From positions 33,555 to 97,554 of the IMG/VR virus record IMGVR_UViG_3300039452_000187: a DNA stretch of 64,000 nt; one strand, written 5' to 3'. The translations under genes were made by a program, and so were the position numbers. Below, one piece after another: positions 1,689 to 56,321 of this stretch; position 1 is the first letter of the stretch; each line of letters opens with the position of its first letter. The notes under the pieces are model-generated. The model ran no database searches. It saw nothing but the letters and a program-made list of their open reading frames with translations, and was not told the origin of the DNA. Origin of the DNA: a virus (taxonomy: Duplodnaviria > Caudoviricetes).

Positions 1689-1711
1689 GTGTCAATCTCC
1701 CGAAAAAGAAA

Positions 1712-6999: not shown

Positions 7000-7023
7000 T
7001 TATTGCATCTCCTGAAAAACCTG

Positions 7024-8460: not shown

Positions 8461-8504
8461 AGGGGCGAGTATGCCGCCTCTGTGTCAGGAGAGAGAAAAT
8501 GCGA
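8461..8504 (-). promoter_or_regulatory. Putative leaderless promoter, shared motif with 20203-20246 and 40718-40754
   Basis: Minus strand: T-tract...CTGACAC...CATACT-CGCCCCT-ATG. Confidence 0.4.
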
Positions 8505-8636
8505 CGGCGCAATAATCGGCGGCACTGACTCTTGCGACGGTTCACCGGACCAGGCCGGCGCTTTTGGCTTGACCGGGAGCCGCGCGGCGCTGAGAATCAT
8601 CCTTGGAGGGGAAGGGTCCGACAAGGAGTAGGGTCC

Positions 8637-9440
8637 ATGTCCATGCCTCTGTTCCGCTTTGCCTGTCCGGCCTGTCAAAAGATCCTCAAGACCAGCCCGA
8701 CGAACGCCGGTCGCAAGTCGCACTGTCCACGGTGCGGCCAACGGCTCCAGGTCCCGGCCCCGCCGGCGCAGCGCAAACGGACGATGCTGGGGCGACTGCT
8801 GCCCGACCGGCCGGTGACCGCACAGGCCAGCGCAGCATCAACCATCACGGAGATTGATCCGGGGCATAACGTCGCTGTGGCTTTGCCCCCCGCAGCAGTC
8901 CATGACACCGAAGTGATTCAGGTCAGTGAAGACGCAGGCCGCTCGAGGATTTTGCCCCCGCTACTCATCACGGTGAGTTGTGCCAGCATGGTTGCTGTGG
9001 CTGGCTGGTGGCTGCTCTCCGACCGGCCACAGCGATCCGGTACCCGGGCCGCTCCGGCGACTCCCGCCGCTGTGAAGGCCGAAGCGTGGACTGAACTGGA
9101 AATGATGCGATATCTGCACGACCACGAAATTCCGTTTCATTTCGTGGCCCACGAGTCGGACCGCACCACGTGGGTGCTGTATCAAAGCGATTCGTATTTT
9201 GAGCGGAATATCCAGGTGGGCCATGAAATGCTGCGGACCTACGGGCCGCGCAGTGCTCCGTGGAATGATGGCGTGGTCATCATGCAGGTATGCCCATCCG
9301 CCGCCGAAGCCAAGAGGCTGCTGGCACTCATGGAGCAGAACGGCCTGAAGGGCGACAATGAATTCGCCTGGAACCGCTTTCTCTTTGTCGGCAGCCGGCC
9401 CTTCATTGCCCAGATTCGCGGCGCCCTCGTCCAGCCTTAG
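8637..9440 (+). CDS. Zinc-ribbon plus single-TM membrane protein (Planctomycete type); accessory (moron) gene
   Basis: FACPACQKILK...CPRCGQRLQVP; TM LLITVSCASMVAVAGWWLL; AAGGAG RBS; opposite strand to the operon. Confidence 0.75.
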   Translation: MSMPLFRFACPACQKILKTSPTNAGRKSHCPRCGQRLQVPAPPAQRKRTMLGRLLPDRPVTAQASAASTITEIDPGHNVAVALPPAAVHDTEVIQVSEDAGRSRILPPLLITVSCASMVAVAGWWLLSDRPQRSGTRAAPATPAAVKAEAWTELEMMRYLHDHEIPFHFVAHESDRTTWVLYQSDSYFERNIQVGHEMLRTYGPRSAPWNDGVVIMQVCPSAAEAKRLLALMEQNGLKGDNEFAWNRFLFVGSRPFIAQIRGALVQP

Positions 9441-11158: not shown

Positions 11159-11182
11159 GGTTGCTGCTTTCTTAGGGTTGGC

Positions 11183-28800: not shown

Positions 28801-29127
28801 TGGGGCCTCCACCTGGTCTGTCGTGCCGCCCTGCGGCAGCGTCACCAGGCAGATCCGGTGCAAAGAATCGTCATGCGGATCGGTGAGGTAGAGCCAGCCG
28901 CCGCGCGGCACCGCCCCCAGCACGTCCGCCAGGACGGCCGCGTTCTGGACGTTGACGGGATCAGGCGGCGGCAAAGGCTCGGTCAGCTCGTTTGTGTTGT
29001 CCGATTCGGCCGCGTACTTCCCGACTGAGGCTGCCGCCAAGACTTCTTCCAGTTCGGCGTCGGTCACTGCCGTAGCATCCGTCAGACCGCTGAGAAAGGA
29101 CCGAAACTCCTGCACTAGCGCTGTCAC
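22831..29127 (-). CDS. 2098-aa polyvalent head-associated protein: ADP-ribosyltransferase-like domain, C39-like peptidase, wHTH
   Basis: FRAWFGDWE..SKVID..GEP..VVYHGT..GPGFYFT..VYLNIRKP..GYDGI..IAFEPHQIK; QRDHYSCG..GHYLTVIG..QDS. Confidence 0.8.
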   Translation of the reverse strand: MTALVQEFRSFLSGLTDATAVTDAELEEVLAAASVGKYAAESDNTNELTEPLPPPDPVNVQNAAVLADVLGAVPRGGWLYLTDPHDDSLHRICLVTLPQGGTTDQVEAPEIAEHVVVVDDRNDSPGHDLYYHRGGGPFSLSEAEPVKDPEQLRELVLEWDGTYQPEADQYARKKKDAAGQTNFLDPQGGGSAGGEWTPYTGPRGGKGWKSNRTGRVLYRDEMPGGHEHEGEHEDDPGPRPEPGQDAQGKQAPAAAAPETPEAKAARLRKEYQELGTRAPAFRAWFGDWEHDAAHASKVIDPETGEPQQQAPVEHSVVVENLMPKVVYHGTPWDRFDEFLKSKLAKGEKLFYGPGFYFTDAAAIAEDYKQHGSGLVDRAGGKLAVPVERVRRELLPALKQKAAKVAADLQYTVKELRLTQDRVAQRSLQRQAEDLESRQYQLHQLEAMILDSTESNVGVAVAKGEHILNAEFGNQFAGWVERPKGHVFSVYLNIRKPFDIDRGKIATADLPEPARSRFRIKQTRPILLVSDEAVTPTDQHWQQMHAALESLPNVSMNFTWQQMKQMMTAEPQRLWGLYQSHPEFRKALRPYNISFQPDVHEVQRPHASYEEVVRQGGLSKSGLQKHLAAQGYDGITHVGHYGSRRGKKIEGVQQHRVWIAFEPHQIKAVDNAGTFDPSNPKIDLARADQPARYDRTDALTAAAPGSELLPVQDIRQRDHYSCGACASMTTGRYFGVGPERLAEWKQALGTTLAKSTHPYAIIDYLRSLGLQVEARNGMAVDDLADYFGRGWPVITPVQDYGHRRSAGASFNYGHYLTVIGVGLGQVFCQDSSIDNVTNDRDVERTPGRVMIPVERFEQIWHDQDDQGRKFVHFGIAVGPPAQERYDREAADPDSSVQARELARWYADGWNALDDAGLEIPESEFAAAAEELEGTGWYVAWDEERKKWDIKQGEEADQYAAERAPKGGIVGANGRHYKGGQWIPAKEVEKLPASEKAKIDKAKEEQTERRRSRGSIDVAKLHEQLEPHTRHELSELELRRAKASFAGLRSHHGELTVHRLEELIQEHQKFLDGIPPEHPNAEGLREQFGKRLKAYKHMLEWAKEHGITGQIDAATEKTSGADGAEQPAEKPPADANKFKDSKGTTWVKAKAGGETSPVNGEFYKGGRWMPIHGLSVKPDQKPQTKEPQGGEMGKPPSENAKQKQPREPMTPEQIQDEKERQEQQVKWNDINASPLGRLKWFGEHPNYKAMQRSTINMKEWKEFAEAIGEGRLKNLAQQLEKRYLDRIEREVAEERANGKEVPEDGIAWEKGIPRHMAEQDVMTFGARKHLAALPSSFLARQLLQSAMEKAGVNGLHEIAAMLTDAERSSKQAPSNQANQANQPQTAQSALATADPMKAAAETDVLSARDRAILIDPTRDIGQKLEALANADTRHLDKLHAQLGLHTNEWLRSAASNWNRFMTSADPGYRRQGEKGLANVVQRIRETLIPALEKAGHKELAGYYRNGADVVEQALKGKQSQAPAPAPAVEQPSNISGADHSTLAVLSEHGIASVDELADATGKPSAELQRHLEELERSGHVEKVARRYGGPLYRLKENQPATAQQSASEPPETEPAPVPSPPEKTSANSSQEDLTSPVQQTMISAGDATGATPGKPAEGNAMVGTAAMTGAQSDTVAAGHEVALAEALAKRNLQAGTPPADEFRAGFVDALAGKTEESWKERGWSGGKVNRWRRGYEDAKAALAPPAAAAPKPESVKQPDVSQPAVSAVTPTATQQGGPLKRQPGEPALDFLRRFVANPAAVQGWIDMAPTLNDLSAEEREEAERIVGADPAKRDRTYPNTHIFKAAQDRYEAATAEHGRAERAARAKDLLAQAATTNDPERVQKEWRDSIYSLSRPRLERLASDLGIKADDPNRGLSYVLSDVMEKALKPAFTRKVYDAARGKVGKLYDKPKDFGMTKRDLPKNPPADALVWRIKAQQDLGVGGTGGFPPKKKGAVIQVRGKDYTVLAGSDVFELRDPEIGGLGRMQHVLVRPATPEEVITSKIPAAIKALEAQAKPYDDYNVSGYMTNEQRDEAKRWLEKYRQDPEAAYREQHNLSVKE

Positions 29128-29138
29128 ACTCGCACCCC

Positions 29139-32100
29139 TTAACTGTGCCGTGAATAAATGGACAAGAATTTTTGAGCCAGCAACTCCATCTCCGATGCCA
29201 ACCGCTCGTACTGCTTGGCGAGTTCGCTCCGTCTGAACGGTACTTCCTCCCCTTGCTCAACCCGATGTTGCTTCCATTCGCGCCGGTCCCGCTCGGCCGC
29301 CCCAAAGCCGGTCGTCGCCGGCACACGCTTCCTTCGTTCCTCTTCCCGCTGGTGCTCCGTCAACCGGTCGAACGCCTCGCTATACGCCTCATCTTCCGAC
29401 AGCGGTTCTGGGTTGCCGCCGAGCAACAAGTCATACAGCCGGCCGGGTAAATCGTCTTCGTGCCCGTTGAATTCCTCCGGATACTTCGCCGCCACGCTCT
29501 GGGCCACGTCGTCCAGCCCGCGCACCGCGTCCGCATCAATGCCCCGGCTGGCGCGGGCCTTCAAGGTGTCCAGGCTGCCGTACCCCTGGCTCTCCGACAG
29601 CTGCCGCGCATCCTTGAGGAGCCGCGTCCGGTCCTTCTTGAACTCGCGATCGTGGGCCAAAATCTCCGCCGCCAACTGGTGTAGGTGCTCGCCCTTCAGC
29701 CCCGACTTCCTTGCTTTCTTCGCCCAGATGGCCCGTTCATAAGCCCGGCTCTGGGCCAGCTGCTGCCGGTGCGACGGCTCCGGGGACTCGGCTTCCGACT
29801 CCGGCTCATCGAACACTTTGCCGGTATGGGCTACCACCGCCGGCCCGTGCCGTGGCTGGTGGAGGTTGACGTGCCCGGATTGCTGCAATTCGTGCAATGC
29901 CTCGTGCAAGGGCGAGCCCGGCTCGTGCTTGTCGCCGGTCAGGCGCTGCAAGGTGCCCACGTCAGCCTCGCCCGTGTCCAGGTGCTGTAGCAGTTGCTTT
30001 TTCAGGTGATGGTGCTGGGACGGCTTGGACCGTGCGTCGCCCTTCTCCGACAACGCAGCGATTTTCTTCCCGGTGAACTTAGGGTGCCCCTTGGCAATCC
30101 TTCCGTCCTTGCCGATACATACAGGACTGCCGCCGCTGCGCTTGCCGCCGTGGCCCTCGTGGGCACCGATCGTGATCCAGGTACACGAACCGGAACCACT
30201 GGACTTGCTCCGCTCATAACCCTCTGGATCTTCACGCCGCCCAAACCGGTCAAACAGGCCGCGATTGGGGACCGTGTTACCGCCGAAGAAGCCCGGCGCG
30301 GATACCGGGGGCTTAGGCTTGACGGGCACAGCTTCCCCTGGGTCCGGCTGTGCCTGGTCGGTCGGTTGTCGGTCGAACCACTCGGCGAAGCTCAGGCCGT
30401 GTTTCGGACCGCCCAGCGTGCGCGACTCGTTCCATTCCTTCTGCCACGAGGCACGAGGCTTGGTCACCGTGTAGCCGTGCGGAGACTGAATGGTCACAGG
30501 ATCATGCGGACCGGTCAGGTAAGAACCGACGTTCGCCAGCGCCCGTCCGAAGGACTTCACCCGCATCTTTCCACGATTGACCGGATCAATGACGGTCAGC
30601 CCTTCATCCGGCGCCAGAGATACCTGGCCGTCCTTGCCCACCTTCAGCCGGGCCAACTCGTCGGGGTGAACCCGGGCGCCGTTGGCCAGGGTGACGTAAT
30701 GCCGAATGGGCCGGCCGGTGGCGTCACTCAAGATAAAGGCATCCGGCGTGTACTCGTGGCCGTAAATGGGGTCGCCGTGGACGGTCTGCCCTTTCTCGAC
30801 CCTGGGAACTTTCACGTCGCGGTAGCGGTCACTCACCGAGAGCTTGCCCTGGCGTTGCAGCTGCAAGGCGGCCCGGAGATCGTCGCCGCGCACTTCGGTC
30901 TTGCCGGTGAGCGGTTGGCCAGCGTCCGGCGATGGAGCCTCGTTGAAGAGAGATGGTCGCTCGGTGGCTGGGGCTGCAGCCGGGGAAGCAACCGGAGTTG
31001 ATGCCGGCGCCTGAACATGCTGTGTCTGATCGGCCGGACCCACGGACCCCAGAGCCTTCCCAGACGCCACCGGCAGCAACTCCGGGCGCGGGTGATCCTC
31101 CGGCATCCTGGGCCAACCACTGAAGCGGTAGCGCTGCACCTGGTTGGCGTGCAGCAGCACCGCCCGAAACGCCTCCGGGGTCAGGCCAGTCTGCGGTGCG
31201 ATCTCGGCATAGAGATCGGCCAGCGGGATATTCGCACCCTTGGCCTGGAAGTGCCGGACCACGGCCGCATCGATGGCAGCCAAGGACCGGTTGAGCGTGT
31301 CAGTACCGGGCAGGTGGGCCAAGTCGCCGCGCGGGTCGGGGGTGCCGGTTTCCCGACCGTGAGCGATCGCCCGCAGCAGTTCGTTGGCTTGCCGGTTATG
31401 GTCGGCCGGATCAGTAGTTGCAGCCGTTGCTGGTTCGCCGCCCGCCAGCAGTTCCTGAACCTCCGCATCCGTTTTGCCGCGTGCCTCTTCCTTGTGAGTC
31501 AAACCGGCCAGCATGCGCCGCTGGGCCGGACTCATGGCGGCCACTTCGTCCGGACGGTAGCCGTGAGTCGCCGCCTTTGCTTTTGGTGGCGCCCACACCT
31601 TGCCCCCGCGTGGTCCCGTCCGCACCAGCGTCCAATCCGGGCTCGGCGGCGTCGGCCCGTGGTACTCGGCGGCGAACCGCTCCGGGACGTTGGCAGTTGG
31701 CGTCATGGTCCGTAAGGGCTGCGACGCGATCGCCCGTGAGGCGGCCGGCCGTCGCATGTCACCCTGGTAGAGGATCCACGCCTCCGTCGCTTCCTGGCGC
31801 TGCTCCGGCGTGCGGGCAGCGCCTAAGAAGTGTTTCTCAAGGATTTGCAACTGTTGCTCAGCTTTCCCGTCGCTCATCGCCTCCGAAGGGACATCGCTAT
31901 AGAACGCATGTTCAATCATGTGGAGATCAAGACCGGCATTGCGTTTGATCTCAGGGTAGGCGTCCTCGCCGCTACGCCAAAGGGTATGCGTGGCGTCGTT
32001 GATGTCGTCTTTCAGGTAGTCCAACACCTGCGCGGCAAAGATCCGTGCCCGGTTCTTGAGGCCCTCAAACTTCTCGACAGGCTTGCCGGTCAGTTGGGCC

Positions 32101-34904
32101 AACTCTGCCGCCGCGGCGGTCGCCGCCTGGAGGCAGGCGCCCTTGAACTCCGTGCTCAAGCCGCGCCAGACCTCCCGCAGTTGCTGCTGCTTTTGCCGCG
32201 GCTTCAGGTCGGACGTCAACAGGCCAATAATCTGCTCATTGGCCGCAGCGATCTGGCCCAGCGCGGGGTGAGTTTCAGCCGCATGTTTGTGCTCGTGTAC
32301 CCACTGCAAATCTCCCGTGGGCGGTCGGTGGTAGCCCGGCTCCGGCTCGTCGGCGCCCGCATGGTCATGCTCACCTGGCATCGTGTCGCGGTACACCTTG
32401 CGACCGGTGCGACTGCTCACCCAATAGCTGGCGCCGCGCGGCCCCGTCTGTCGCGTCCACTCATTCCCGCCTTCTCCAGCTGCAAACCGTGCCGGCCGCT
32501 CCCGCCGCTGCTGCCTTCCCTTTCCATCCACCGGCGGCATCGTCTCCACCCCCGGCAGCACAAACAACCGCCCTCCATCAATGGGTTCCTGGGCAATCCC
32601 CAGCACCCCGTGCATGTCCAGCCCTTCCACCCGCCCGCGCCACTCCACCGCCATCGGCCACTTGGCCCCAATCAACCCGGGCACTTTCTGTGTGGCCTTC
32701 TCTCCGAGATAGACCGTCAGGAAATTCTCGGCCGCATCCCCGTAGCCGCCCAGGCCCCACGATTCCACCCGGTCCGACTGGCTAATCCCGATGAGCCGCA
32801 TCTTCGAGTGCCGGCCGCGCTGGGCCAATCGCCGGATGAGCAGCCCGGCTTCGTTGGGCAGTTCGGCTACCGTGTCCGGGACCTCATCCCAAATAATCGT
32901 GACCGGCTCGAAGTCCGCGTGCCCTTCTTGCAGCGCGACCCCGCGCCGCTTCATCTCCCCCAGCAAGGCCGCGAGGGCCTGCTGGATCGGCTCGTAGTCG
33001 CCATCGGGGGCCACGGTCACCGTCGGCAAGCCGCCCCAATTGCCCGGCTCCCAGAGCGGGTCGATGACAACGAGGTGGTCGTTGGAGACCGTGGCCAGCG
33101 CCTGCGCGAGGACAGTTTTCCCCGATTTGGTCGGCCCTATGATTCTCAGGTGCGGGGCGGCCGTCAGGAGCAGCTGCAACCACTGCCGGGGCTCGGTCGG
33201 CGTGCCGGCCGCGTAACGCTCGGGTGCCTCGTCGCGGGACAGCTTCGCGGAGCCATCGGCCACGGTATGCGGCATGGGTGCGACACCGTTGGAATGCGCC
33301 GCTCCGTTGGGCGATTGCCCTGGCGGCTGCGCCTTCGGTGAACCGTTGGGTTGGCCGCCGCCCAGCATCCCGAGCAGCCCACCCATACCCCCACCGCCCG
33401 GTGCCCCGCCGCCTCCCCCTGGTTGCTGGGGCTGCTGCTGAGTCTGGGGATTCCTGAGCACATCATCCCCTTGTTGCGGCTTGCTCAACCCGGCAAACCC
33501 GAGCACTTCCTCCGTCTTGACCGGTGCCCCCATGCTGTACGCCTTGCTCGCCGCCTCCAATTGGTCCTTCGCGTTCGGCTTGTCGACCTCAAAGACCCAC
33601 TTGTGCCGATACTCTTCCCCCGGCCGGTTCCAGCGCTGGAGCACCGGCACCAGGTCCGTGGTCAGCGTGTCACCGAGGTTCTGGGCGTCATATTTCGTCA
33701 GTCGGTATTTGGTATCCGCCATGAACTCCGTGTCATGGGTCCCGAGCCCCGAGCTTTCCGAGCGACTACTGCCCGTCTGCCCGACGATATACCGCTCAAT
33801 GATCCCCTCGACATGCTCCTGCAGCTTCACCAGTGTTTCGGACCCTGACATGCTCATTTCGAGCTTATCCACCCCCGCCCCTTGCTTCTCGGAGCCGATG
33901 GGGCGCGGCCACACAATAACCGTGTTGTTCGACATTTCATTCGCGGCCTTGATCGCCGCGTTCTCGCTCTGCGGATTGCCGGCCTCGTAGTAGAAAATCA
34001 GGACCCCCTGGCCGACTTTTTGAATGAAGTCGCAGACGTTGCCGAGCCATTCTTTCCGCAACCAGTCCAGCCAGTAGATGCGGTGCCGCACCCCCACCCC
34101 CTGGACGCCGCCGGCCATTTCCCCCTCGAAGTAGTCCGCGTCGTCCATCTCGTGCTGATGGATCAGAAAGCGCTCACGCCAGTACGGGTCGCGGAGAACG
34201 AGGGCGGTGCCGCGATCGGTGAGAATGGACGTGGCCTTGGGCACGCCGCGAATCCAGGCCGGGTTGACCAGGATAAGCGGGGTGCCGTCCTCGATGTACT
34301 CCTTCTCACCGGGCAGGCGGAAGCGGTATTGGATCTTGTCGCCGTTAATCGGATAAAAGCCGTTGGCCGACAGCTGCCGCCGCCCCAGCCGTTGCTGCCA
34401 CACGTAGGATAGGCCGACCGCGTAGCGCCCATACCAAATCGCGTCCAGCAAACACATGAGCAGCTTCTGAAAATGGCTGACGCGCTTGATGAGGGCCGTG
34501 AGCGCCGCCGCCGAGTCCTTCTGTCGCTGGTCTTTCGCATCCTCCGGTTCCAGGTGCCAGCCGAGCTGGGCCGTCGCCAGTCGCCGCTCTTGGAGCAGCC
34601 CCATGAGGAACGCATCACGCCGCATGCCCAGAGCGTCTTCCCGCGACGTCCGCATCGCCTCGTCCCAGCGCCAGCTGTAGACGCGCATCGCCGAGCCGAA
34701 AATGCCGGTGTAGGTGAGCACATGGGGCAGGGGGAAGACTCGTTCGCCGGGGTCCGGGTGGCGGCCCGTGCCGTTGCTGCCGTTGGCCGCACCGAGCCGG
34801 TCGTTCAAGCTAATCGGCTCGCCGTCGGGGCCATAGAGAACGGGCTGGCCGGCGCGGTCGCGGTGGAGAGGGGGCAGGTCGGGCCGGTAGGGGTTCGTCG
34901 GCAT
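29139..34904 (-). CDS. Portal protein (Mu gp29/DUF935-like) fused to an FtsK/HerA-like P-loop ATPase and further domains (~1920 aa)
   Basis: LLDAIWYGRYA, IVGQT..SGLGT..H portal motifs; GPTKSGKT, LVVIDP, EMKRR, IIWDE, RGRHSKMRLIGISQ. Confidence 0.8.
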   Translation of the reverse strand: MPTNPYRPDLPPLHRDRAGQPVLYGPDGEPISLNDRLGAANGSNGTGRHPDPGERVFPLPHVLTYTGIFGSAMRVYSWRWDEAMRTSREDALGMRRDAFLMGLLQERRLATAQLGWHLEPEDAKDQRQKDSAAALTALIKRVSHFQKLLMCLLDAIWYGRYAVGLSYVWQQRLGRRQLSANGFYPINGDKIQYRFRLPGEKEYIEDGTPLILVNPAWIRGVPKATSILTDRGTALVLRDPYWRERFLIHQHEMDDADYFEGEMAGGVQGVGVRHRIYWLDWLRKEWLGNVCDFIQKVGQGVLIFYYEAGNPQSENAAIKAANEMSNNTVIVWPRPIGSEKQGAGVDKLEMSMSGSETLVKLQEHVEGIIERYIVGQTGSSRSESSGLGTHDTEFMADTKYRLTKYDAQNLGDTLTTDLVPVLQRWNRPGEEYRHKWVFEVDKPNAKDQLEAASKAYSMGAPVKTEEVLGFAGLSKPQQGDDVLRNPQTQQQPQQPGGGGGAPGGGGMGGLLGMLGGGQPNGSPKAQPPGQSPNGAAHSNGVAPMPHTVADGSAKLSRDEAPERYAAGTPTEPRQWLQLLLTAAPHLRIIGPTKSGKTVLAQALATVSNDHLVVIDPLWEPGNWGGLPTVTVAPDGDYEPIQQALAALLGEMKRRGVALQEGHADFEPVTIIWDEVPDTVAELPNEAGLLIRRLAQRGRHSKMRLIGISQSDRVESWGLGGYGDAAENFLTVYLGEKATQKVPGLIGAKWPMAVEWRGRVEGLDMHGVLGIAQEPIDGGRLFVLPGVETMPPVDGKGRQQRRERPARFAAGEGGNEWTRQTGPRGASYWVSSRTGRKVYRDTMPGEHDHAGADEPEPGYHRPPTGDLQWVHEHKHAAETHPALGQIAAANEQIIGLLTSDLKPRQKQQQLREVWRGLSTEFKGACLQAATAAAAELAQLTGKPVEKFEGLKNRARIFAAQVLDYLKDDINDATHTLWRSGEDAYPEIKRNAGLDLHMIEHAFYSDVPSEAMSDGKAEQQLQILEKHFLGAARTPEQRQEATEAWILYQGDMRRPAASRAIASQPLRTMTPTANVPERFAAEYHGPTPPSPDWTLVRTGPRGGKVWAPPKAKAATHGYRPDEVAAMSPAQRRMLAGLTHKEEARGKTDAEVQELLAGGEPATAATTDPADHNRQANELLRAIAHGRETGTPDPRGDLAHLPGTDTLNRSLAAIDAAVVRHFQAKGANIPLADLYAEIAPQTGLTPEAFRAVLLHANQVQRYRFSGWPRMPEDHPRPELLPVASGKALGSVGPADQTQHVQAPASTPVASPAAAPATERPSLFNEAPSPDAGQPLTGKTEVRGDDLRAALQLQRQGKLSVSDRYRDVKVPRVEKGQTVHGDPIYGHEYTPDAFILSDATGRPIRHYVTLANGARVHPDELARLKVGKDGQVSLAPDEGLTVIDPVNRGKMRVKSFGRALANVGSYLTGPHDPVTIQSPHGYTVTKPRASWQKEWNESRTLGGPKHGLSFAEWFDRQPTDQAQPDPGEAVPVKPKPPVSAPGFFGGNTVPNRGLFDRFGRREDPEGYERSKSSGSGSCTWITIGAHEGHGGKRSGGSPVCIGKDGRIAKGHPKFTGKKIAALSEKGDARSKPSQHHHLKKQLLQHLDTGEADVGTLQRLTGDKHEPGSPLHEALHELQQSGHVNLHQPRHGPAVVAHTGKVFDEPESEAESPEPSHRQQLAQSRAYERAIWAKKARKSGLKGEHLHQLAAEILAHDREFKKDRTRLLKDARQLSESQGYGSLDTLKARASRGIDADAVRGLDDVAQSVAAKYPEEFNGHEDDLPGRLYDLLLGGNPEPLSEDEAYSEAFDRLTEHQREEERRKRVPATTGFGAAERDRREWKQHRVEQGEEVPFRRSELAKQYERLASEMELLAQKFLSIYSRHS

Positions 34905-35040
34905 AGCAGGCCGTTCCAATAAAGGATCAGCCGCATGCCAGACCAAGCGGGAAGAGTGCGCGGCCGTGCCGGTGATGAGCCGGCAGCCGGGAAGTCAGGA
35001 TGCTTGGATTCTATCCGAGAAAGGGAAAGGTTGCGAAAGC

Positions 35041-39834: not shown

Positions 39835-40623
39835 CTAACCTGGTGCCTGAATCGCGAAATCCTGCCCACAGTGCGGACAAGTCACCATCGCCAGCAGCGG
39901 CTCGGCCCCGTCGCCTTCCCCGCCCGCCGCCGTCTGTGCGTCCTCATCCTGGTCCTCTTCCGCCTCCGGCCCGTCCACCGGTTCCTCGGGGTCCTGTTCT
40001 TCATCCTGCCCAGACACAACCGGATTTGTGCTTCCTGCCACTTCTTTTGTGCGGCCCGACAGTCCCTCGGTGTTCATGGGATAGGTGCTGCCGCCGCGCT
40101 GCACCAACCGCTCCGTAGTCGCTGGTTTTTCCTCCGACGGTTCGCCCGTGGCGCCGGTGTCGCCCGCATCTATCTGGAAACCGTTACCAGATAGCTCGGC
40201 CCGAATCTCGGCCACGAGCGGGTGGCTGACGGCACAGCGCCGGGCAATTTCCCGGTCCGACCACTGGCCCCATTCCTCATCGCGGAGCAGTGTTTCCACG
40301 GCCCGCCGCTTGTCCGCGTTGGTGCGCCTGAGGCCGTGCTTGCGGTTGGCCCCGGCAGCGTAGAGGATGGCGTCGCGGCGCGTGCCCGGCTGCACTTCCA
40401 CAATCATGTGCTTGCGTGCTGCGTGCGAGTGGGCGCCGTAGCGGTGAAAGCCGTCGGCCAGCCAGTAGTCCTGGCCGTCGTAGAACACCACGGCCGGCGG
40501 CAAGTCGTCGAGCACCTCGGCCAGGTCGACGATGACGTCGCGGCTCAGCTCGGCGCGCATCTGGGTGCCGCCGTCTACCCGGATCTTTGTGAGCCTCAGA
40601 CTGGTGAGGTTCGCCTCTGCCAT
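39835..40623 (-). CDS. ParB-like N-terminal domain plus HTH protein
   Basis: TQMR..LPPAVVF..YWLADGFHR; WSDREIARRCAVSHPLV. Confidence 0.85.
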   Translation of the reverse strand: MAEANLTSLRLTKIRVDGGTQMRAELSRDVIVDLAEVLDDLPPAVVFYDGQDYWLADGFHRYGAHSHAARKHMIVEVQPGTRRDAILYAAGANRKHGLRRTNADKRRAVETLLRDEEWGQWSDREIARRCAVSHPLVAEIRAELSGNGFQIDAGDTGATGEPSEEKPATTERLVQRGGSTYPMNTEGLSGRTKEVAGSTNPVVSGQDEEQDPEEPVDGPEAEEDQDEDAQTAAGGEGDGAEPLLAMVTCPHCGQDFAIQAPG

Positions 40624-40857: not shown

Positions 40858-41211
40858 TTACCCGGCATCAAATGGTTCCTTGGTTGCGGCCGTGTCTGCA
40901 GATCTTTTTGCCGCCTCTTCTTTTGTCTCCTGCAGCCACGTCGCCATGTCCGTCCCCTCTCCCTTGTCCTTGTCCTTGTCCTTAGTCGGCTCCTTGAACC
41001 GCTTGGTCCACTGCCAAATGCGCCGCAAAGGGATGTCCAGGATTCGTGCGACCAGCAGTTCCAGCTCCGCCAGGGCGGCGAGGTTGCTGCCGTCGAGGAA
41101 GCCGGCCACGGCGGCAGCGAGAGAGATTTCGGCGTCGGTGGGCTCTGGACGCTCAGCCAGGTGCGGCCGGAGCTGGGCGTAGGTGGTGGATTCGTGGGAG
41201 AGCGGGTTCAT
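40858..41211 (-). CDS. Hypothetical protein immediately downstream of the CRISPR array
   Basis: MNPLSHES..., 117 aa. Confidence 0.5.
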   Translation of the reverse strand: MNPLSHESTTYAQLRPHLAERPEPTDAEISLAAAVAGFLDGSNLAALAELELLVARILDIPLRRIWQWTKRFKEPTKDKDKDKGEGTDMATWLQETKEEAAKRSADTAATKEPFDAG

Positions 41212-41249: not shown

Positions 41250-41720
41250 GTCTCAGTAACCAACCCACTGAGCAGGGTCTTCCAACCTGGACGGGGGCAG
41301 CTTGCCGGCGGCCGGTTCGGGGTCTCAGTAACCAACCCACTGAGCAGGGTCTTCCAACTCATCTTCCTGCTGCTGCCGCTCCTGGGCCACTTTGTCTCAG
41401 TAACCAACCCACTGAGCAGGGTCTTCCAACGCGAATACTGCCACAAGAGAAATGAGCAAATCTGGTCGTCTCAGTAACCAACCCACTGAGCAGGGTCTTC
41501 CAACTTTCCATAACAGCTGCCGCGGCCGCGGATGGGCGGTCTCAGTAACCAACCCACTGAGCAGGGTCTTCCAACGGCCCATCCATGTGGCGTTCCCGCC
41601 CGGCGGCATCGTCTCAGTAACCAACCCACTGAGCAGGGTCTTCCAACGGATGGCAGAAGCGTCGACCAAAGGGCGATAACAAAGTCTCAGTAACCAACCC
41701 ACTGAGCAGGGTCTTCCAAC
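41250..41720 (-). CRISPR. CRISPR array: 7 identical 37-bp repeats and 6 spacers of 34-37 bp
   Basis: Repeat (minus strand) GTTGGAAGACCCTGCTCAGTGGGTTGGTTACTGAGAC; plus-strand starts at 41250, 41322, 41394, 41468, 41539, 41611, 41684; orientation inferred from the cas gene and the AGAC 3' end. Confidence 0.98.
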
Positions 41721-41912
41721 GGTCAACCTCTAAAACCGTGCTACCGCAAGCCGTTGAGTTGCTGTCCGCGAGAGGTTGACCAAAACAACTCGCCAAGGTA
41801 GCGGCAGCACCAACCAGGTTGTCAAAGATCGGTTCTAAATCAAGACTTACGCCACGCGAGAGCCATCACTGCACTATTCTGGCTGCAACCGCAGGTCAGT
41901 TCATGACTTCCA
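41721..41912 (-). promoter_or_regulatory. CRISPR leader
   Basis: Non-coding, between cas12 and array; 11-bp inverted repeat abutting the first repeat; GATCTTTGACAA motif. Confidence 0.7.
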
Positions 41913-43949
41913 TTAAAGGGCCACAGAACCGGCTCTTTCACCATCGCCGCGCTCGCGATACCACCGCAGCATGTTCAGACAGGCATTGCGGTCCTGGTCC
42001 CGCACTTCCTGACTACCACTGTAGCAGTGCTCTAATTGGGCCTTGTCCATGTCCTCGTCCACAACCTCCGTGGTCGCGCATTTGGTCGTCGTCTGGCTCG
42101 CCGGTGCCTTCGGCGCTTCACCTGCATTCTCGCAACAAAGTTGCACCAGCCGGCCAACGGCCGCACAGCGCCGATAGTCGAGAGGGATATACCCCTCCAC
42201 TTGATCGACCTCGGGAGTATCCTGTAAATCGCGCCAGTTGACATCCTCGGTGATGACTGCATGATAGCGGCGGCGCAATATAGCGGCCAAGTTGCGGTAC
42301 ACGTCATCGCGCCAGCGAATGGCTCCCTTGAGAACGAATGCCTGCCAGTCATACAAATGTTTATCCTGCTTGCGCCACCATTCCAGCACCGGGAAGATGG
42401 ACTGGTCCCCGGTGAAGCGGCGGAAACGCCACTTGAGGACCAACTTGGCCAACCGATCCTCGCTACGCCAGGAGGCCAGGGTTGCTGTCTCCTCTTCCAA
42501 CCACTTCGGCACGTCCACACCACGCTTGCGGTTGGCCAGGAGCGTCTCGATGGCCGCACAGCGTTCTTCCAGATCATTCCGCCAGCGGATGGCACTCTTC
42601 TCCATCTTGGCTCGCCTGTTTTGCGACACATCCTTGAGCTTGGGCAACCTCTGGAGCTTCCATTCCTGCTCCGCTGCCGACTTCCGCAGGTGCTGAAGTT
42701 CCCTGGCTAGGTCGGCAATCGGCAAGTCCTCCGCCTTGAGCCAAGTCACGAGTGTCGCATGATAGACGTTGAACGTCCGGTCCCGAATCTGTTGCAAGTC
42801 GTCATGCTTTTCCCAGCGTTTCAAGTCCGCGTGCGGCAAGATGAGTTCCCCTTCGGCGCCATCACTGCCAATCCAGTAGGCCACGCGCAGCCCGTTGGGC
42901 CGTAGCCGCCAACCAACATCGACGGCCACATATCCAGACTCGGCCTGATCCTCTTTGGTGAATCCATCCTCGCGCGAAATCACCAGTTGCAAGGCCCATT
43001 CATCATGAGTACCGATGCGCCGTTTGAGGCCGTAGCTCCATTTGATCTGCGCATCCGGTGGCAGGTCACGATGGAGCGTCACCACGAATTCCGCCCAGAT
43101 CGGTGCGCGCCCGTCCGAGCCAATCCGCACCGACGCGAGATAGCGCCGCACCGCCGCCTTACTCGGCTTTTCGCCTTCGCCCAGCGGTTTGGGCCGCAGC
43201 CGAAAGCGCGTATCCATTCCAGCGAAGGCATCGGCCACGCTCAGACCGCCCTGGAACTGGACGGCGATCTTCCCGTCCCCGCGGAAGCGCTTGAAGCGTG
43301 GCGGTTTGCCTTCGCGAATGCCCTTAAGAGACTGTTCCACGGTCAAATAGGTGCCCCAGAACACTCTACAAGCGGCCCGCAACTCCTTGAGCTTGGCATC
43401 GTGTTCATCCTCGACCCGGTTTATTTCGTCCTGAAATTCCGGTTTTTCGGAGAGGAGTCGCCGCCGCCGTCGATACTCCTGCCGCAGCGCCGCCAGGACT
43501 AACCGTTTCTTGCCCTGCCGCTTCACTTCGGCTTTGTACCAGTCGTGCAACTCCTTGACCCTGTCGTCATTTCCCCAGCACCGCGCCTTCGCTTCCTTGA
43601 GAGTGATCGTCAACCGCTTACGCGCTGCCCGCAAAGATTTAATCCGGTCCTTGTCGGCATCCGTGGTCACGCGCTTGCGTGCTTTGGCGTTCTTGGCCTT
43701 CGTTTCCCTGATCGCAGCCTCCAAAGCCTCAGTGGCCTCGGCTAGCCGCTGCTCCAAGGTTTCGACTTCCGGGAAATAGCGGCGCAAAGCCGCCAAAGAA
43801 GCTTCCCGTCGTTCGCGTTCGGCTGCCACCAGGTTATTTCTGTAGCGATTGGCGTCATAGATCTGCTGGCGAACCGCCTCTCCATTGATAGTCGGAGCCT
43901 TGGCACCATAGGAGTAAATTCGTGATGGCTTCGCGTCGTTGCCGTGCAT
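41913..43949 (-). CDS. cas12m: Type V CRISPR effector, Cas12m (V-U1/V-M)-like, 678 aa
   Basis: FWGTY, FRGDGKIAVQ, HRDLPPDA, VAVDVGWR (RuvC-I), W....LA.L...WR, LEWWRKQDKHL, ITED (RuvC-II), DQDRNA (RuvC-III); long N-terminal coiled coil; adjacent array. Confidence 0.85.
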   Translation of the reverse strand: MHGNDAKPSRIYSYGAKAPTINGEAVRQQIYDANRYRNNLVAAERERREASLAALRRYFPEVETLEQRLAEATEALEAAIRETKAKNAKARKRVTTDADKDRIKSLRAARKRLTITLKEAKARCWGNDDRVKELHDWYKAEVKRQGKKRLVLAALRQEYRRRRRLLSEKPEFQDEINRVEDEHDAKLKELRAACRVFWGTYLTVEQSLKGIREGKPPRFKRFRGDGKIAVQFQGGLSVADAFAGMDTRFRLRPKPLGEGEKPSKAAVRRYLASVRIGSDGRAPIWAEFVVTLHRDLPPDAQIKWSYGLKRRIGTHDEWALQLVISREDGFTKEDQAESGYVAVDVGWRLRPNGLRVAYWIGSDGAEGELILPHADLKRWEKHDDLQQIRDRTFNVYHATLVTWLKAEDLPIADLARELQHLRKSAAEQEWKLQRLPKLKDVSQNRRAKMEKSAIRWRNDLEERCAAIETLLANRKRGVDVPKWLEEETATLASWRSEDRLAKLVLKWRFRRFTGDQSIFPVLEWWRKQDKHLYDWQAFVLKGAIRWRDDVYRNLAAILRRRYHAVITEDVNWRDLQDTPEVDQVEGYIPLDYRRCAAVGRLVQLCCENAGEAPKAPASQTTTKCATTEVVDEDMDKAQLEHCYSGSQEVRDQDRNACLNMLRWYRERGDGERAGSVAL

Positions 43950-44080
43950 AGAAGATTACCCGCTCTACTGACCGATTATTCCTGCTACCAATTTGACTGA
44001 CGAAAGTTGCCGCCCGCAACCCAGGAAGAACTTGCACAGACGGCCCGGCAGCAATAAAGACATAAAATTCAGCAAAACAA

Positions 44081-44239
44081 CTATTTATCCGTATCCGCGA
44101 TGCCAACCTTATCTTCCAGCCGCCGGATTCGTGCACCCTGAGACCGAACCATCGGGATCAAGACGCAGCAATAAAGGACCATGAGCCCCGCGGCAAACAG
44201 CAAGGCGGCCAGGAACCCGATTAACTCGCCCTTTATCAT
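44081..44239 (-). CDS. 52-aa single-TM membrane protein (not in the ORF track)
   Basis: MIKGELIGFLAALLFAAGLMVLYCCVLIPMVRSQGARIRRLEDKVGIADTDK; GGAG RBS. Confidence 0.55.
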   Translation of the reverse strand: MIKGELIGFLAALLFAAGLMVLYCCVLIPMVRSQGARIRRLEDKVGIADTDK

Positions 44240-44303: not shown

Positions 44304-45791
44304 TCATCGCTTCACCCCGAACAGTCCCCTTCTCACTACCGCCGAGCCACTCCGGCCGTCCCCGCCCTCACGGTCCCGTCGCGTCCCGCTTTCGTTCGCG
44401 CCCAGCCCCGCCGCGTGCGCCTGCTGCCGGGCCGTCAGGCCAATCTGTTCCCGTTCCGGCAGCTGCGAAGGCGCCGTAAACGGCACCCGCCCCGAACCGT
44501 CCAAATGCGCGACCATGTACCTGAGCCCATCCATGCCGTGATTGTTCTTATCAATCGGCACTTCCCCCTTTTTCCGGTTGTTCGTCAGGTCCCACACGTA
44601 CCCGTCAAACTCCTCTTCCGTACACGTGGGCAGCTTCAATTCCACCAACCCGCTATCCCGCTCCACCAGCGAATCCCGGAGCAGGAACAACCGCCCGCGT
44701 CCGTCCCCAGCCTTCCGTAACCGTGCCGCCACATGCTGCACGCCCGCTTCAATCGCCTTGACCGCTGGCACCGTCGACCGCCCCAGGTACTTTTCCAACG
44801 TGGCCCGCCCCTCGGCGTCATGGTCGCAAATGACCGCCGCCGGCGCCGGCTCGTCCTGGCTCAGTTCCCGAATTAACTTCGCGTGGTCCTCCACGAGCCG
44901 CTGCGCATGGTAAATCTCGCGGTAGCGGAATAGCCGGTCGTCCTCATCCTTGGCCCACCACTGGCACACAAACGCATTGGTGAACCCAAAGTCGATCGAC
45001 AAGTACCGCGACCAAGCTGCCGGAATGTCGAACCTATCAATCAGGTGCACCGCCCGGTCCCACTCCTCGTACACCACCCCTTCCGCCTGGACCCAGCGGC
45101 CATAGCGGAGCCGCAACTTGCGCGGCCCCGTCATGTTGTCGAGCTTTTGCAGGTACTTCTCGCCCTCTGGCGTCCACCCCTGCTTCTCGGCATCCCAGAT
45201 GGTGGGATTGTCCTCGTGCCTGGTGTCGATGAGGCGCGTCTGCCCATTGTCGCAGCGCTTCTTGAGCCAGTGCGTGGGCGTGTCGGGGTTGGTGTCAGCG
45301 ATGAGTTGCTGGTAGGGCATCCGGCCATTCCGCAAGGGCCGGGTCAGCAGTTCCCACTCGTTCTCGGTCAGCTCAATCGCTTCCTGGACATAGACGATAT
45401 CGTATTCCGTGGACAGGGTGCGCGAGGGCTTGTCGAGGCCGCCGACGACCAGCGTCGAGCCATTGGGGTAGTGGTAGGCTTGCCGTAGCCGCCGCTGCCC
45501 CCCGGACGAGAGGGCCGGGTGCCCCACCGGCAGCACCTTTTGCTCAAAGGTCACCAGGCCGGATTCAGTGAGCGAGTCGCGGGTCTTGCGGACAATCAGC
45601 CCACGCATCCCCGGGTACTTGGTGGCGCACGCATGGAGCTTTTCCAGGCACGTCCGCGACTTGCCGGTGCCGGCCGGCCCCGAGAGGAGCAGTTCGCCGT
45701 TGCGATCGCGAAGCACTTTCAGCACCGTCGGGTTCATGAGGAACGGCCGGCGGTCGGGGTGCAAATCGGCTTCGGGGACGGTGACCTGCAT
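44304..45791 (-). CDS. terL: Terminase large subunit
   Basis: GPAGTGKS Walker A, VYVQEA Walker B, DTNP, SIDFGF nuclease motif, NHGMDGLRY. Confidence 0.95.
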   Translation of the reverse strand: MQVTVPEADLHPDRRPFLMNPTVLKVLRDRNGELLLSGPAGTGKSRTCLEKLHACATKYPGMRGLIVRKTRDSLTESGLVTFEQKVLPVGHPALSSGGQRRLRQAYHYPNGSTLVVGGLDKPSRTLSTEYDIVYVQEAIELTENEWELLTRPLRNGRMPYQQLIADTNPDTPTHWLKKRCDNGQTRLIDTRHEDNPTIWDAEKQGWTPEGEKYLQKLDNMTGPRKLRLRYGRWVQAEGVVYEEWDRAVHLIDRFDIPAAWSRYLSIDFGFTNAFVCQWWAKDEDDRLFRYREIYHAQRLVEDHAKLIRELSQDEPAPAAVICDHDAEGRATLEKYLGRSTVPAVKAIEAGVQHVAARLRKAGDGRGRLFLLRDSLVERDSGLVELKLPTCTEEEFDGYVWDLTNNRKKGEVPIDKNNHGMDGLRYMVAHLDGSGRVPFTAPSQLPEREQIGLTARQQAHAAGLGANESGTRRDREGGDGRSGSAVVRRGLFGVKR

Positions 45792-45815: not shown

Positions 45816-46352
45816 TTAGACTTCGGCGGCCGGGTCGCCGCCGATATAGACCTTGACAATCTCTCCACTGTGCTCGTGCTTCTCGGTCCAGTCGCCCTTC
45901 TCCTGAGCCAACTGCTTTTGGTACTCGCGGTACTCCTTGAGCAGCCCCGTATCCACTTCATACTCTTCCACGCGTACGAAGTTGTCGCCGCCGCCCGTGC
46001 CCTTGATGGTCCGCACCTGAATACCCTGGTCGCCTCCCGGTGCCTTCTGGTGCTCGGGATCCTTGCCGCGGGCCTCAATCACCGCTTCCATCCGGGCCAG
46101 CATTCGCTTCAAAGATTCGATCCGGCGGGCGCGCCTGGCCAGCCCGCGGCTAATGATCCTCTCTTCGATTTCGGCCACCAACTCTTCCACTTTTTGGCTG
46201 AACTCAGGGACCGCCAACCATCGCCGCAGCGTCTTCTCGTCAATGTCGAGTTGCTCCGCGATCTTCCGGTTGGAAAGCTTGTCCTCCGCCAGCAGTTCAG
46301 CCGCCTGCAGCTTGATGCTATTCCATTTGAAACTATGGACATTTGTGGACAT
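45816..46352 (-). CDS. terS: Terminase small subunit (HTH)
   Basis: SNRKIAEQLDIDEKTLRRW; C-terminal EKHEHSGE; directly upstream of terL. Confidence 0.85.
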   Translation of the reverse strand: MSTNVHSFKWNSIKLQAAELLAEDKLSNRKIAEQLDIDEKTLRRWLAVPEFSQKVEELVAEIEERIISRGLARRARRIESLKRMLARMEAVIEARGKDPEHQKAPGGDQGIQVRTIKGTGGGDNFVRVEEYEVDTGLLKEYREYQKQLAQEKGDWTEKHEHSGEIVKVYIGGDPAAEV

Positions 46353-46719
46353 TTTCTGACTGTACACCCGCTCCCGCATTCGCCCCAAAAAACTGCCGAT
46401 GGGTCGGCAGCCCTTTCAGTTCCAACCATCGCGCCAGCACCCGCCCGACCCGTCGGAACAACTCACGCCCGCGACTGGCCCGCCGCTCGTAAATCGCCAG
46501 CAAGTGCGGCAACTCCACCGGCGAAGGCCGCACCACCCCGGTGCTGGTGTGAACCTCTCCCAACTGCCCCAGCACCACGCTGCACGCCGCACAGGCGGAT
46601 GACCCGCGCGGCACCGGCACCTTGCGACAAATCTTGCAAAACCGCCGCGTGTCCTTGTGACCCTGCTTGGGGCCGTCTTGTCCCGGCCGCCGCTCTTTTG
46701 TATGGTCGAAGCCAGACAT
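46333..46719 (-). CDS. Hypothetical zinc-finger protein
   Basis: CKIC...CAAC; YERRASRGRELF. Confidence 0.45.
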   Translation of the reverse strand: MSGFDHTKERRPGQDGPKQGHKDTRRFCKICRKVPVPRGSSACAACSVVLGQLGEVHTSTGVVRPSPVELPHLLAIYERRASRGRELFRRVGRVLARWLELKGLPTHRQFFGANAGAGVQSENVHKCP

Positions 46720-46840: not shown

Positions 46841-47797
46841 TCAAAACAGGTCGCGCTGTTCCACCGACTCAACCGTCTCCCCATTATCCGTTGCATCATC
46901 GTTGCTGCTGCCATAGATCGGCCCATTGACCAACAGCACCTCCGGCGCCACCTGCCCCTTGCTTCCTCTTTGGCCCTGGACCGCCAGCCCTTTCGCGCGC
47001 GAGCAGTCGAGCTTCTTCCACCCAGCCGCCGCCGGGTACAACTCGGCCAACTCCGGAGAGTCGTAGTAGCTCACCACGACGCGAGCTAACCGAAATTGCG
47101 ACAGCAGCCGCGCCAGTCGCTTGTGGTCCGCTGGGGCCAAATCGTGCGTGTAGACCGCACTGCCGCGACTGGAGGGCAGGTAGGGCGGGTCCACGTAAAT
47201 CGCCACCCCGTCCTGGTCCTCGATCTTCTCCAGCAGTAAGAACCCGTCCCGGCGCAGGATGGTGACTTTCCTGAGCCGGCGCCGCCAGGCCGGGATAGAA
47301 TCGACCGCCGACGCGAACCTGGTGCCCTGGATACCGCCGTTCAGGGTGTAGCGCACGCAGAAATTATTATTCCACTGTCTCGTCCCGATGACGCCGTTGC
47401 GGCCCACCCACGAGGCGACGAAGAAGTGGTAAGCGCGGTCCAGGTCCGGTGAGGCATCGTTCATGATGTCTGGGGCTGCCTTGAGGAAGTTGGCCGATTG
47501 CCAAAAGATGCCCTCATGGACAAGTGTCCGGCGCAAGCGCCGATAAAGGGCGGGGGCGAGCCGATCATCGCGGACCACGAGGGCCAGATTAATCAAATCC
47601 CCGTGAAGGTCGTTCACGGTTTCCTGCGAGCAAGCCGGCTTCTCCAACAAAACCGCCATAGAACCACAAAATGGCTCCCAATAACAGCGGTGCTTGCCGA
47701 GTTGCTGTACGATGGTCGGCGCCATGGTCCGTTTCCCACCGAACCAGGGAGCGATGGCGGTAATCTTCATGGCGGGCTGCGCTGCCGAAGAAGACAT
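46841..47797 (-). CDS. dam: DNA adenine methyltransferase (Dam/D12 class)
   Basis: PWFGGK, EPFCGS, VNDL, YVDPPY. Confidence 0.92.
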   Translation of the reverse strand: MSSSAAQPAMKITAIAPWFGGKRTMAPTIVQQLGKHRCYWEPFCGSMAVLLEKPACSQETVNDLHGDLINLALVVRDDRLAPALYRRLRRTLVHEGIFWQSANFLKAAPDIMNDASPDLDRAYHFFVASWVGRNGVIGTRQWNNNFCVRYTLNGGIQGTRFASAVDSIPAWRRRLRKVTILRRDGFLLLEKIEDQDGVAIYVDPPYLPSSRGSAVYTHDLAPADHKRLARLLSQFRLARVVVSYYDSPELAELYPAAAGWKKLDCSRAKGLAVQGQRGSKGQVAPEVLLVNGPIYGSSNDDATDNGETVESVEQRDLF

Positions 47798-48073
47798 CTT
47801 AAGACTCCTACGTCTGTGCCTGTATCTGTGCCTGTGCCTTGGTCTGTGCCTGTGACTCACTCGACGCTGGCAAGCCCCGGCAGCGGACGCGCCGGGCTAC
47901 CTCTCTGGCCCACTGCCAGAAATCCGCCCGGGCCTCCTCTGGCGTCTGCCGATTCTGGCCGCCGCTGGCCGTGCAGCAGAACCAACTGTACTGCCCGTCG
48001 CTCCAGCGGTGCGTCATGGCTGCGAGGATGACGTCGTAAGCTGCCGCCTTCTCGTCCCGGCTGACCGGCAGCG

Positions 48074-55631: not shown

Positions 55632-56321
55632 TCACATTCCTGGCAACAAGCAACCAGTTCGACCCGTGCAATGCTCTTCTTGGCTCCTATAATGATCTCG
55701 CCAAAACCTCTCCAGGAGTCGGAAGGTTGTTCTCTCTGCGAACCAGCGTTCCGGGCAGAACCACCAATGAACTCGTGGAAATCGCTCTTGGTAGGCAATA
55801 ATGCAACGATGAACAGTCACAGGACTCAAATACCTTGGCGGCTTCTCACCCCAGACCTTTTCAGTCTCTTTGTCCGCATTGAAAAACCCTAAGACCTGGC
55901 CAATCCTTCCTTCCAACAGCCGGTTTATCATCATCACCAGCCTTTCGTAATACTCAGGCCACAACCCAAGGATTTGGCGCCAGTCCGCTTCCACCACGAC
56001 TGCTGCAAACTTCATCGCGGACAGTCTGGAAAGTTCATTCTCAAATTGCTCCCTGCGGTGTTTCAGCGTTGAATACAAATCAGTGAGCGACTTTCTTTCA
56101 ATAGCAACGTCGTTCTCGAAACCTTCTAATGAGTAATCTCCAGTCTTTAATGATCGTGTTACTGTGTACACACCCTTGAGCCTCGACCCACGGTTGGCCC
56201 TCATTGTGAAACCATCAAACGTGAAGGGCAGTTTTTCTTGAACGTCGATAATGATCGTGGCTGAAAAACGTGTCCCTGTTTCGTTCAAAAAAATCTCTTC
56301 GAGTGTTTTCTCACCCGCCAT
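55632..56321 (-). CDS. ERCC4/XPF-domain nuclease (paralog 2, low GC)
   Basis: IDVQEK, TGDYS, IERKSLTDL. Confidence 0.88.
   Translation of the reverse strand: MAGEKTLEEIFLNETGTRFSATIIIDVQEKLPFTFDGFTMRANRGSRLKGVYTVTRSLKTGDYSLEGFENDVAIERKSLTDLYSTLKHRREQFENELSRLSAMKFAAVVVEADWRQILGLWPEYYERLVMMINRLLEGRIGQVLGFFNADKETEKVWGEKPPRYLSPVTVHRCIIAYQERFPRVHWWFCPERWFAERTTFRLLERFWRDHYRSQEEHCTGRTGCLLPGM

Follow-up and report, generated by a model that had tools for sequence, protein, structure and literature searches.

What kind of CRISPR system does a phage carry beside its packaging genes, and should its effector, in which the RuvC triad is intact, be expected to cut DNA? These questions are raised by positions 41250-43949 of a 64,000-nucleotide stretch (the window), which comprises bases 33555-97554 of the 97,554-bp IMG/VR virus record IMGVR_UViG_3300039452_000187. 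The source record is a complete phage (Duplodnaviria; Caudoviricetes) that has direct terminal repeats of 147 bp and a GC content of 63% and that CheckV rates as 100% complete. The locus is a genuine minimal CRISPR system of type V-M, the former V-U1, carried by the phage, and from its sequence and predicted structure the effector is identified as Cas12m. The system probably acts by RNA-guided DNA binding, silencing its targets in the course of conflicts among mobile elements. An initial annotation, made from the sequence alone, had described an effector, a leader and a six-spacer array beside terL, and all of these were found in place. It had also noticed the absence of adaptation genes and of an anti-repeat. 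Pfam models for cas1, cas2 and cas4 have no match across the complete phage genome, and no anti-repeat, solitary repeat unit or handle was found outside the array in the whole phage, the best repeat match being 11 nt. The components of the system are as follows.

41913-43949, minus strand: cas12m (P0001), type V-M effector of the D-E-D kind, 678 amino acids (aa), identified by profile, solved relative and fold
41721-41912, minus strand: leader of 192 nt, from the cas12m stop codon to the first repeat, 53% GC
41250-41720, most likely minus strand: CRISPR array downstream of cas12m, seven repeats of 37 nt and six spacers of 34-37 nt

The effector matches the PADLOC Cas12u1 model (E 4.5e-77) and, by phmmer (E 1.3e-53), a 577-aa protein in the PDB, 23vw_A, which is deposited as 'CRISPR-associated DNA-binding protein Cas12m' and is itself D-E-D. 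Matches to the TtCas12m2 and GoCas12m sequences are weak (E 7e-9 and 5e-6), Pfam and NCBIfam searches returned nothing useful, and no sequence match to Cas12j or Cas12l was found in the PDB. An AlphaFold2 model built from 28 homologues has a predicted local distance difference test (pLDDT) score of 88.8 and a predicted TM-score (pTM) of 0.78, with the whole protein, including the TNB region, modelled confidently. It has the features of the Cas12m fold: a WED domain, a sickle-like REC1/REC2 coiled coil, and a RuvC domain with an inserted TNB domain. The best structural matches found by Foldseek are Cas12m2 (8hhl, E 1.1e-27) and GoCas12m (8pm4, E 6.9e-26). In VIA-align, GoCas12m aligns with Z 22.0 over 539 residues and Cas12m2 with Z 21.4 over 531, at 3.5-3.7 Å, and the next-ranked family, TnpB, reaches Z 15.4 over 334 residues. 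CasPhi and Cas-lambda are well under the Cas12m values, at Z 10-13 with a root mean square deviation (rmsd) of 6-9 Å.

The initial annotation had seen in this protein an intermediate between TnpB and Cas12m, and had proposed a phylogeny with both as the check. A family profile identified 3,314 cluster representatives at E<=1e-30, and a tree of 214 family sequences was made with FastTree (LG), midpoint-rooted and without a TnpB outgroup. The effector is nested among the Cas12m proteins, 15 nodes deep, with a tip branch of median length (0.67 against a median of 0.64), which is not accelerated. Its sisters (support 0.95) are two metagenomic proteins, P0092 and P0107, of 666 and 708 aa, in both of which the CxxC...CxxC motifs are intact. 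Because it is nested so deeply in this midpoint-rooted tree, and with a fold closer to Cas12m than to TnpB, the effector does not look like an intermediate. It appears to be a derived member of a D-E-D subclade rather than a bridge to TnpB. The possibility that it is simply a TnpB associated with an insertion sequence (IS) was also rejected, as the protein has 678 aa with a long REC coiled coil and is accompanied by a true array, and the TnpB fold match is weaker than that to Cas12m.

The gene for the sister protein P0107 is at 8001-10127 of a 71.7-kb JGI metagenome contig, among many small unannotated genes on the same strand, and the protein has a Lys/Pro/Ala-rich tandem repeat in its N-terminus. 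There is no CRISPR array in the 5 kb searched (7000-12000 of the contig), and P0107 may be an orphan Cas12m.

Within the effector, the catalytic residues, the zinc-finger region and two insertions are located as follows.

42918-42920, minus strand: codon GAT of RuvC-I Asp344, in VAVDVGWR
42246-42248, minus strand: codon GAG of RuvC-II Glu568, in ITEDV
41991-41993, minus strand: codon GAC of RuvC-III Asp653, in DQDRNA
42009-42089, minus strand: TNB / zinc-finger region, aa 621-647, zinc ligands lost
42522-42725, minus strand: insertion of aa 409-476, located after the RuvC-I and before the RuvC-II motif, an antiparallel hairpin of helices, seen as low-occupancy columns and in the model
43467-43607, minus strand: extension, aa 115-161, of the Arg/Lys-rich REC coiled coil, seen as low-occupancy columns and helical in the model

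The three canonical residues reported by the initial annotation are therefore present, and their numbering was verified. The same D-E-D triad is found in 171 of the 214 sampled family members (about 80%) and in most of 55 viral relatives from IMG/VR. An intact triad is the majority state of the family in this sample and does not predict cleavage.

It is the zinc finger that sets this protein apart. The ligand columns of the CxxC...CxxC motifs are at least 90% conserved across the 28 homologues. At the four columns (624, 627, 643 and 646) the effector retains only C624; the other three are occupied by T627, Y643 and S646, and a Cys is found one position away, at 642. The erosion already noticed in the initial annotation is thus confirmed, and as many ligands are lost in no other full-length sequence among the 214 family members and 55 viral relatives. 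Judged from these residues, a canonical zinc site cannot form in the TNB domain. The loss is a derived change within the Cas12m family and gives no ground for excluding the protein from it; the zinc-less TNB domain is the one distinctive trait of the effector. In those Cas12 enzymes that are active nucleases, loading of the substrate strand is the task of the TNB domain. The loss would, if anything, argue against cleavage by this effector, because it is the zinc site of that substrate-loading domain that has gone.

The two additional helical insertions that had been noted are real, being in alignment columns filled in fewer than 30% of the 214 family members. Arg and Lys make up 32% of aa 86-195, the region that includes the first of them. 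The second, modelled as helices 411-437 and 443-476, superposes on a segment of SMC coiled coil (Z 10.6, rmsd 1.9 over 69 aa) and is common to P0092 and P0107, hence it is not unique to the phage protein.

Nuclease competence had been proposed for the effector on the assumption that the RuvC sites of characterised Cas12m proteins are non-canonical. This assumption is out of date, and the interpretation fails with it. By 2023 the family had been split by Wu et al. into four clades, with clades 3 and 4 being D-E-D or near-D-E-D in the summary by Omura et al. (PMC10442227). Double-stranded DNA was not cleaved by any of the four D-E-D, two H-D-D and two N-D-D proteins that Bigelyte et al. assayed, and each of them bound it in dependence on a protospacer adjacent motif (PAM) (PMC11013384). 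Proteins of all three kinds protect against plasmids and phage. Purified MsCas12m, in which D274 is a predicted RuvC catalytic residue, showed neither target nor collateral cleavage, and its D274A mutant still processes the precursor of the CRISPR RNA (pre-crRNA), making this processing independent of RuvC (PMC11013384). Cas12m2 did not regain cleavage when its HDD was changed to DED, and the non-target strand is held by a Mg2+ that the triad coordinates (PMC10442227). On its sequence, the phage protein offers no positive reason to expect nuclease activity.

The RNA half of the system is also of Cas12m type, since its repeat sequence and covarying stems are shared with other Cas12m-linked arrays. 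All seven of the 37-nt repeats are 100% identical, including the terminal one, with the minus-strand sequence GTTGGAAGACCCTGCTCAGTGGGTTGGTTACTGAGAC; on the plus strand they start at 41250, 41322, 41394, 41468, 41539, 41611 and 41684. The array and cas12m most likely share a direction of transcription, given that about 38 related viral loci have the gene followed directly by the array, with repeats that end in GAC. The repeat has a 3' hairpin followed by AC, together with a CCC/GGG pairing equivalent to the pseudoknot stem known from the PmCas12m CRISPR RNA (crRNA). Covariation was assessed in 19 repeats: that of this phage, 17 from arrays adjoining viral Cas12m genes, and one from a plasmid array. 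Pairing in stem II, which has six pairs, reaches 92%, and compensatory changes occur at each of the six. The structure as a whole is 84.6% paired, compared to 62.7% in shuffled sequences (0 of 500 as high) and no more than 48% when the partners are slid.

No second CRISPR array was found in the phage. The only other periodic signal, a 45-nt tandem repeat of 3.2 copies at window positions 11768-11909, would code for a Pro/Ala-rich peptide repeat and is not a CRISPR array. The nearest database repeat is in an array on the Methylomonas koyamae plasmid pLM6 (NZ_CP023670.1), from which the phage repeat differs by a compensatory stem pair. Region 1273-5320 of pLM6 has, immediately after a gene annotated as 'helicase-related protein', a Cas12m-like gene of 589 aa with an N-D-D triad, whose sole annotation is 'zinc ribbon domain-containing protein'. 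An array of five repeats follows it, and genes of a PRTRC system are nearby.

Upstream of the effector there is a region that could supply its promoter.

43950-44080, minus strand: AT-rich gap of 131 nt upstream of cas12m, 47% GC against 63% for the genome, promoter-like

A sigma-70-like site lies at 44003-43975 upstream of cas12m; it agrees with the consensus, which by itself does not show that the site functions.

Several collections were searched for targets of the spacers. Compared to the genome of the phage itself they have no match longer than 18 nt, the array as a whole has no match in GenBank phages, and seeds of all six spacers found no target in IMG/VR. Spacer 3 has three 17-mer matches in IMG/VR that were rejected, since on extension they reach just 19-22 of 34 nt. 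The only match found in PLSDB plasmids is from repeat to repeat, to the M. koyamae plasmid array, and does not provide a spacer target. Two-spacer samples were taken to larger collections, spacers 4 and 6 to 185,579 species genomes and spacers 1 and 4 to JGI metagenomes, and no convincing target was found in either. Among 335 spacers from other viral Cas12m arrays none targets this phage, and the spacers of this phage have no match in the other viral Cas12m loci.

Spacer 4, at window positions 41431-41467, has a GC content of 46%, compared to 63% for the phage, and its plus strand resembles the start of a gene (AGAGAAATGAGCAAATCTGG). A target at the 5' end of a gene would suit an effector that blocks transcription.

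The function thought probable for this locus, that of a silencer directed at rival mobile elements, can be set out as a series of steps. Transcription of the array would start in the leader or read through into it from cas12m, and Cas12m would trim its own pre-crRNA independently of RuvC, as in the relatives that have been studied. The crRNA-Cas12m complex would then recognise a PAM-flanked DNA target, form a stable R-loop and, leaving the target uncut, prevent it from being transcribed or replicated. The likeliest targets would be competing phages or plasmids in the same host, resulting in superinfection exclusion or competition between elements. The acidic triad would most likely serve in metal-mediated binding of the displaced strand, not in hydrolysis. 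The absence of zinc from the TNB domain and the additional coiled coils would be lineage-specific changes to a DNA-binding scaffold. All of these functional steps follow what has been described in characterised relatives; it is the identity of the parts that the locus itself establishes. Several observations weigh against this function. No protospacer was found for any of the spacers in the phage itself, GenBank phages, PLSDB or IMG/VR. The closest homologue of the effector, its sister P0092, is only 40% identical to it, and no promoter could be called with confidence in the leader at 41721-41912. The retention of D-E-D in some 80% of the family implies selection for some role of the triad, undetected catalysis included, and the loss of zinc ligands could be a sign of a destabilised, non-functional protein.

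It is unlikely, though arguable, that the effector has a catalytically competent D-E-D site and cuts or nicks the DNA to which it is guided. In favour of this, each catalytic residue is canonical and within a conserved motif, the frequency of the triad in the family suggests selection on the site, and Omura et al. have raised hydrolysis by clades 3 and 4 as a possibility (PMC10442227). However, the four D-E-D proteins that were assayed did not cleave double-stranded DNA, purified MsCas12m cut neither target nor collateral substrate, and reversion to DED left Cas12m2 inactive. The closest solved relative, 23vw_A, has the same triad and is named as a DNA-binding protein in its deposition, and the phage protein has lost three of the four canonical zinc-ligand positions, which we take as a further point against cleavage. 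A related proposal retains the binding mechanism and aims the guides at chromosomal genes of the host, for example defence systems, so that the host is reprogrammed while it is infected or lysogenic. Four of the spacers are GC-rich and, when read in frame, can be taken for coding sequence with high GC at third codon positions (GC3), and the 24 PAM-proximal nt of spacer 6 are found exactly in a DUF1553 gene of a Fimbriiglobus metagenome-assembled genome, a length to be set beside the approximately 17 nt reported for a mature Cas12m guide. But the match ends at 24 nt, with 3 of the following 11 positions matching, and while its E value is 5.4e-6 for the one genome it is about 0.5 for the whole collection; it was rejected as probably due to chance. 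The remaining spacer matches in the Fimbriiglobus genome are unrelated stretches coding for PAAGKL, the other 266 of the 267 genomes in that order have no counterpart of spacer 6, and the closest relatives of the phage terL are from actinophages. Targeting of host genes is thus quite doubtful.

Little credence is given to the suggestion that the locus is a decaying, non-functional remnant, with an effector that is being lost and an array that is inert. In its favour are the zinc-ligand loss, unique in the sampled family, the absence of adaptation genes, the lack of any spacer target, and the isolation of the protein, a singleton whose nearest match among 5.8 billion clustered proteins has 36% identity and which has no close relative there. 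Set against this, the cas12m open reading frame (ORF) of 2,037 nt is uninterrupted, the family motifs other than the zinc ligands are all intact, and the tip branch is of median length. The whole protein is modelled with high confidence even across the TNB region, and the seven repeats are perfectly identical to the last. The unbroken ORF, the identical repeats and the AT-rich promoter-like region upstream are signs of an intact locus. It is similarly improbable that the small subclade of P0001, P0092 and P0107 is a functionally distinct, phage-adapted variant, in which the strictly retained D-E-D site might nick, cut single strands or process the displaced strand, or in which the coiled coil might act on a host factor, by recruiting or blocking it. 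If this were true, the subclade would be a naturally different V-M effector and not another silencer.

A single-protein query identified no close viral relatives of the effector, while a scan with an alignment of 10 sequences identified 56 distinct IMG/VR viral loci that encode relatives. These are 510-783 aa, with triads that are mostly D-E-D and some variants with N, H, K or G, and an array is directly downstream of the gene in about 38 of the 56. A CheckV completeness of at least 90% is recorded for 19 of 50 IMG/VR records with relatives, and 14 of the 50 have a terL of the PHROG family to which that of this phage belongs. Many of the viral contigs with relatives are 100-245 kb, several of them with terminal repeats and a CheckV completeness of 100%. 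Of 50,697 GenBank phage records, one has a homologue of the effector, Virus Rctr197k (30% identity), where it is encoded at KX853510.1:112507-114177 and annotated as 'similar to transposase'. A 2024 review describes V-M as strongly enriched on plasmids, with some in prophages, and ties it to competition between elements (PMC11656645). A September 2026 preprint presents MvCas12m of myxophage MV-1 as the first phage Cas12m (bioRxiv 10.64898/2026.09.14.751636). The 56 IMG/VR loci and the prophage V-M systems of the 2024 review make phage V-M wider than that 'first' would suggest.

Among known systems the closest are the V-M proteins of D-E-D clades 3 and 4, including MsCas12m and 23vw. They share with the phage locus the family, the triad, the order of gene then array, the type of repeat ending in GAC, and the lack of a trans-activating CRISPR RNA (tracrRNA) and of adaptation genes. 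The phage effector differs in being about 100 aa longer, through the 68-aa coiled-coil hairpin and the REC extension, in having lost three of four zinc ligands, in being 36-40% identical to its nearest relatives, and in being encoded by a phage beside terL. The H-D-D proteins of clade 2, TtCas12m2 / MmCas12m (8hhl, 8hio) and GoCas12m (8pm4), have the same bilobed fold, Arg-rich REC coiled coil and single crRNA guide, but their triad is H-D-D, their HCCC zinc finger is intact and they originate from bacterial chromosomes or plasmids. MvCas12m, compared by description and not by sequence, is likewise phage-encoded and D-E-D, with an adjacent array, no cas1, cas2 or cas4, no tracrRNA and no identified targets; it differs in its length of 610 aa, its 8 spacers and its phage lineage. 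Cas12j (CasPhi) and Cas12l (Cas-lambda) are also phage-borne, of about 700 aa, and without tracrRNA or adaptation genes, but they belong to other families, cut DNA and use the RuvC site for crRNA processing. TnpB of IS200/IS605 has the same WED-REC-RuvC-TNB core. It is, however, of about 400 aa and has an omega RNA at the transposon end and no CRISPR array, whereas the phage effector has the REC2 coiled coil and an array.

Cas12m was therefore already known from plasmids, prophages and one myxophage, and this locus adds a member with a zinc-less TNB domain. It is a complete and well-bounded case of a phage Cas12m beside packaging genes and, with the 56 IMG/VR loci, it indicates that virus-encoded V-M systems are common and not a single curiosity. 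The effector is a natural test of the need for the TNB zinc finger in Cas12m function. That four-fifths of the family retain D-E-D, although the members tested do not cut, raises the question of what the triad is selected for. The suggestion of a compact, tracr-independent tool holds for the missing tracrRNA and not for compactness, as typical Cas12m proteins have 550-600 aa. There is no obvious advantage as a tool, because the effector is larger than the characterised Cas12m proteins.

The genes of the phage are mostly on the minus strand, and the following surround the system.

45816-46388, minus strand: terS, upstream of terL
44304-45791, minus strand: terL, directly upstream of cas12m (phrog_2, E 7.8e-34; Pfam Terminase_3 and Terminase_6N)
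44081-44239, minus strand: small ORF of 52 aa, hydrophobic, between terL and cas12m
40858-41211, minus strand: ORF of 117 aa that follows the array immediately and shares its strand
39835-40623: gene with a ParB-like PHROG match, at the downstream end of the locus

In the direction of transcription the order is terS, terL, the 52-aa ORF, the AT-rich gap, cas12m, the leader, the array, the 117-aa ORF and the ParB-like gene. A helicase is encoded by neither of the genes that flank the cas12m-array unit. The 52-aa ORF has no PHROG match, and the Pfam ParB_N model has no match anywhere in the phage genome. The neighbouring terL, terS, Dam and ParB-like genes are absent from every related Cas12m locus that was compared.

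Beyond the window, at 4779-5309 of the genome, is a tyrosine integrase-like ORF of 418 aa that passes the cut-off of the Pfam Phage_integrase model with 33 bits, and the phage is therefore probably temperate. A silencer that does not cut suits a temperate element. The closest terL sequences, at 42-52% identity, belong to phages of Thermobifida and Streptomyces and point, weakly, to an actinobacterial host. No tRNAs, looked for as a clue to the host, were found in the phage.

Elsewhere in the window, two adjoining giant ORFs of 2,098 and 1,935 aa are on the minus strand at 22831-34946, with GC3 typical of coding sequence; these may encode tail or virion-associated proteins. A homologue of RecD/Dda-like helicase-exonuclease V is at 56311-58710 on the minus strand. 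Also on the minus strand are a Dam-like D12 class DNA methyltransferase at 46841-47860 and a second DNA methyltransferase, of 532 aa, at 58730-60328, and the two may have anti-restriction functions.

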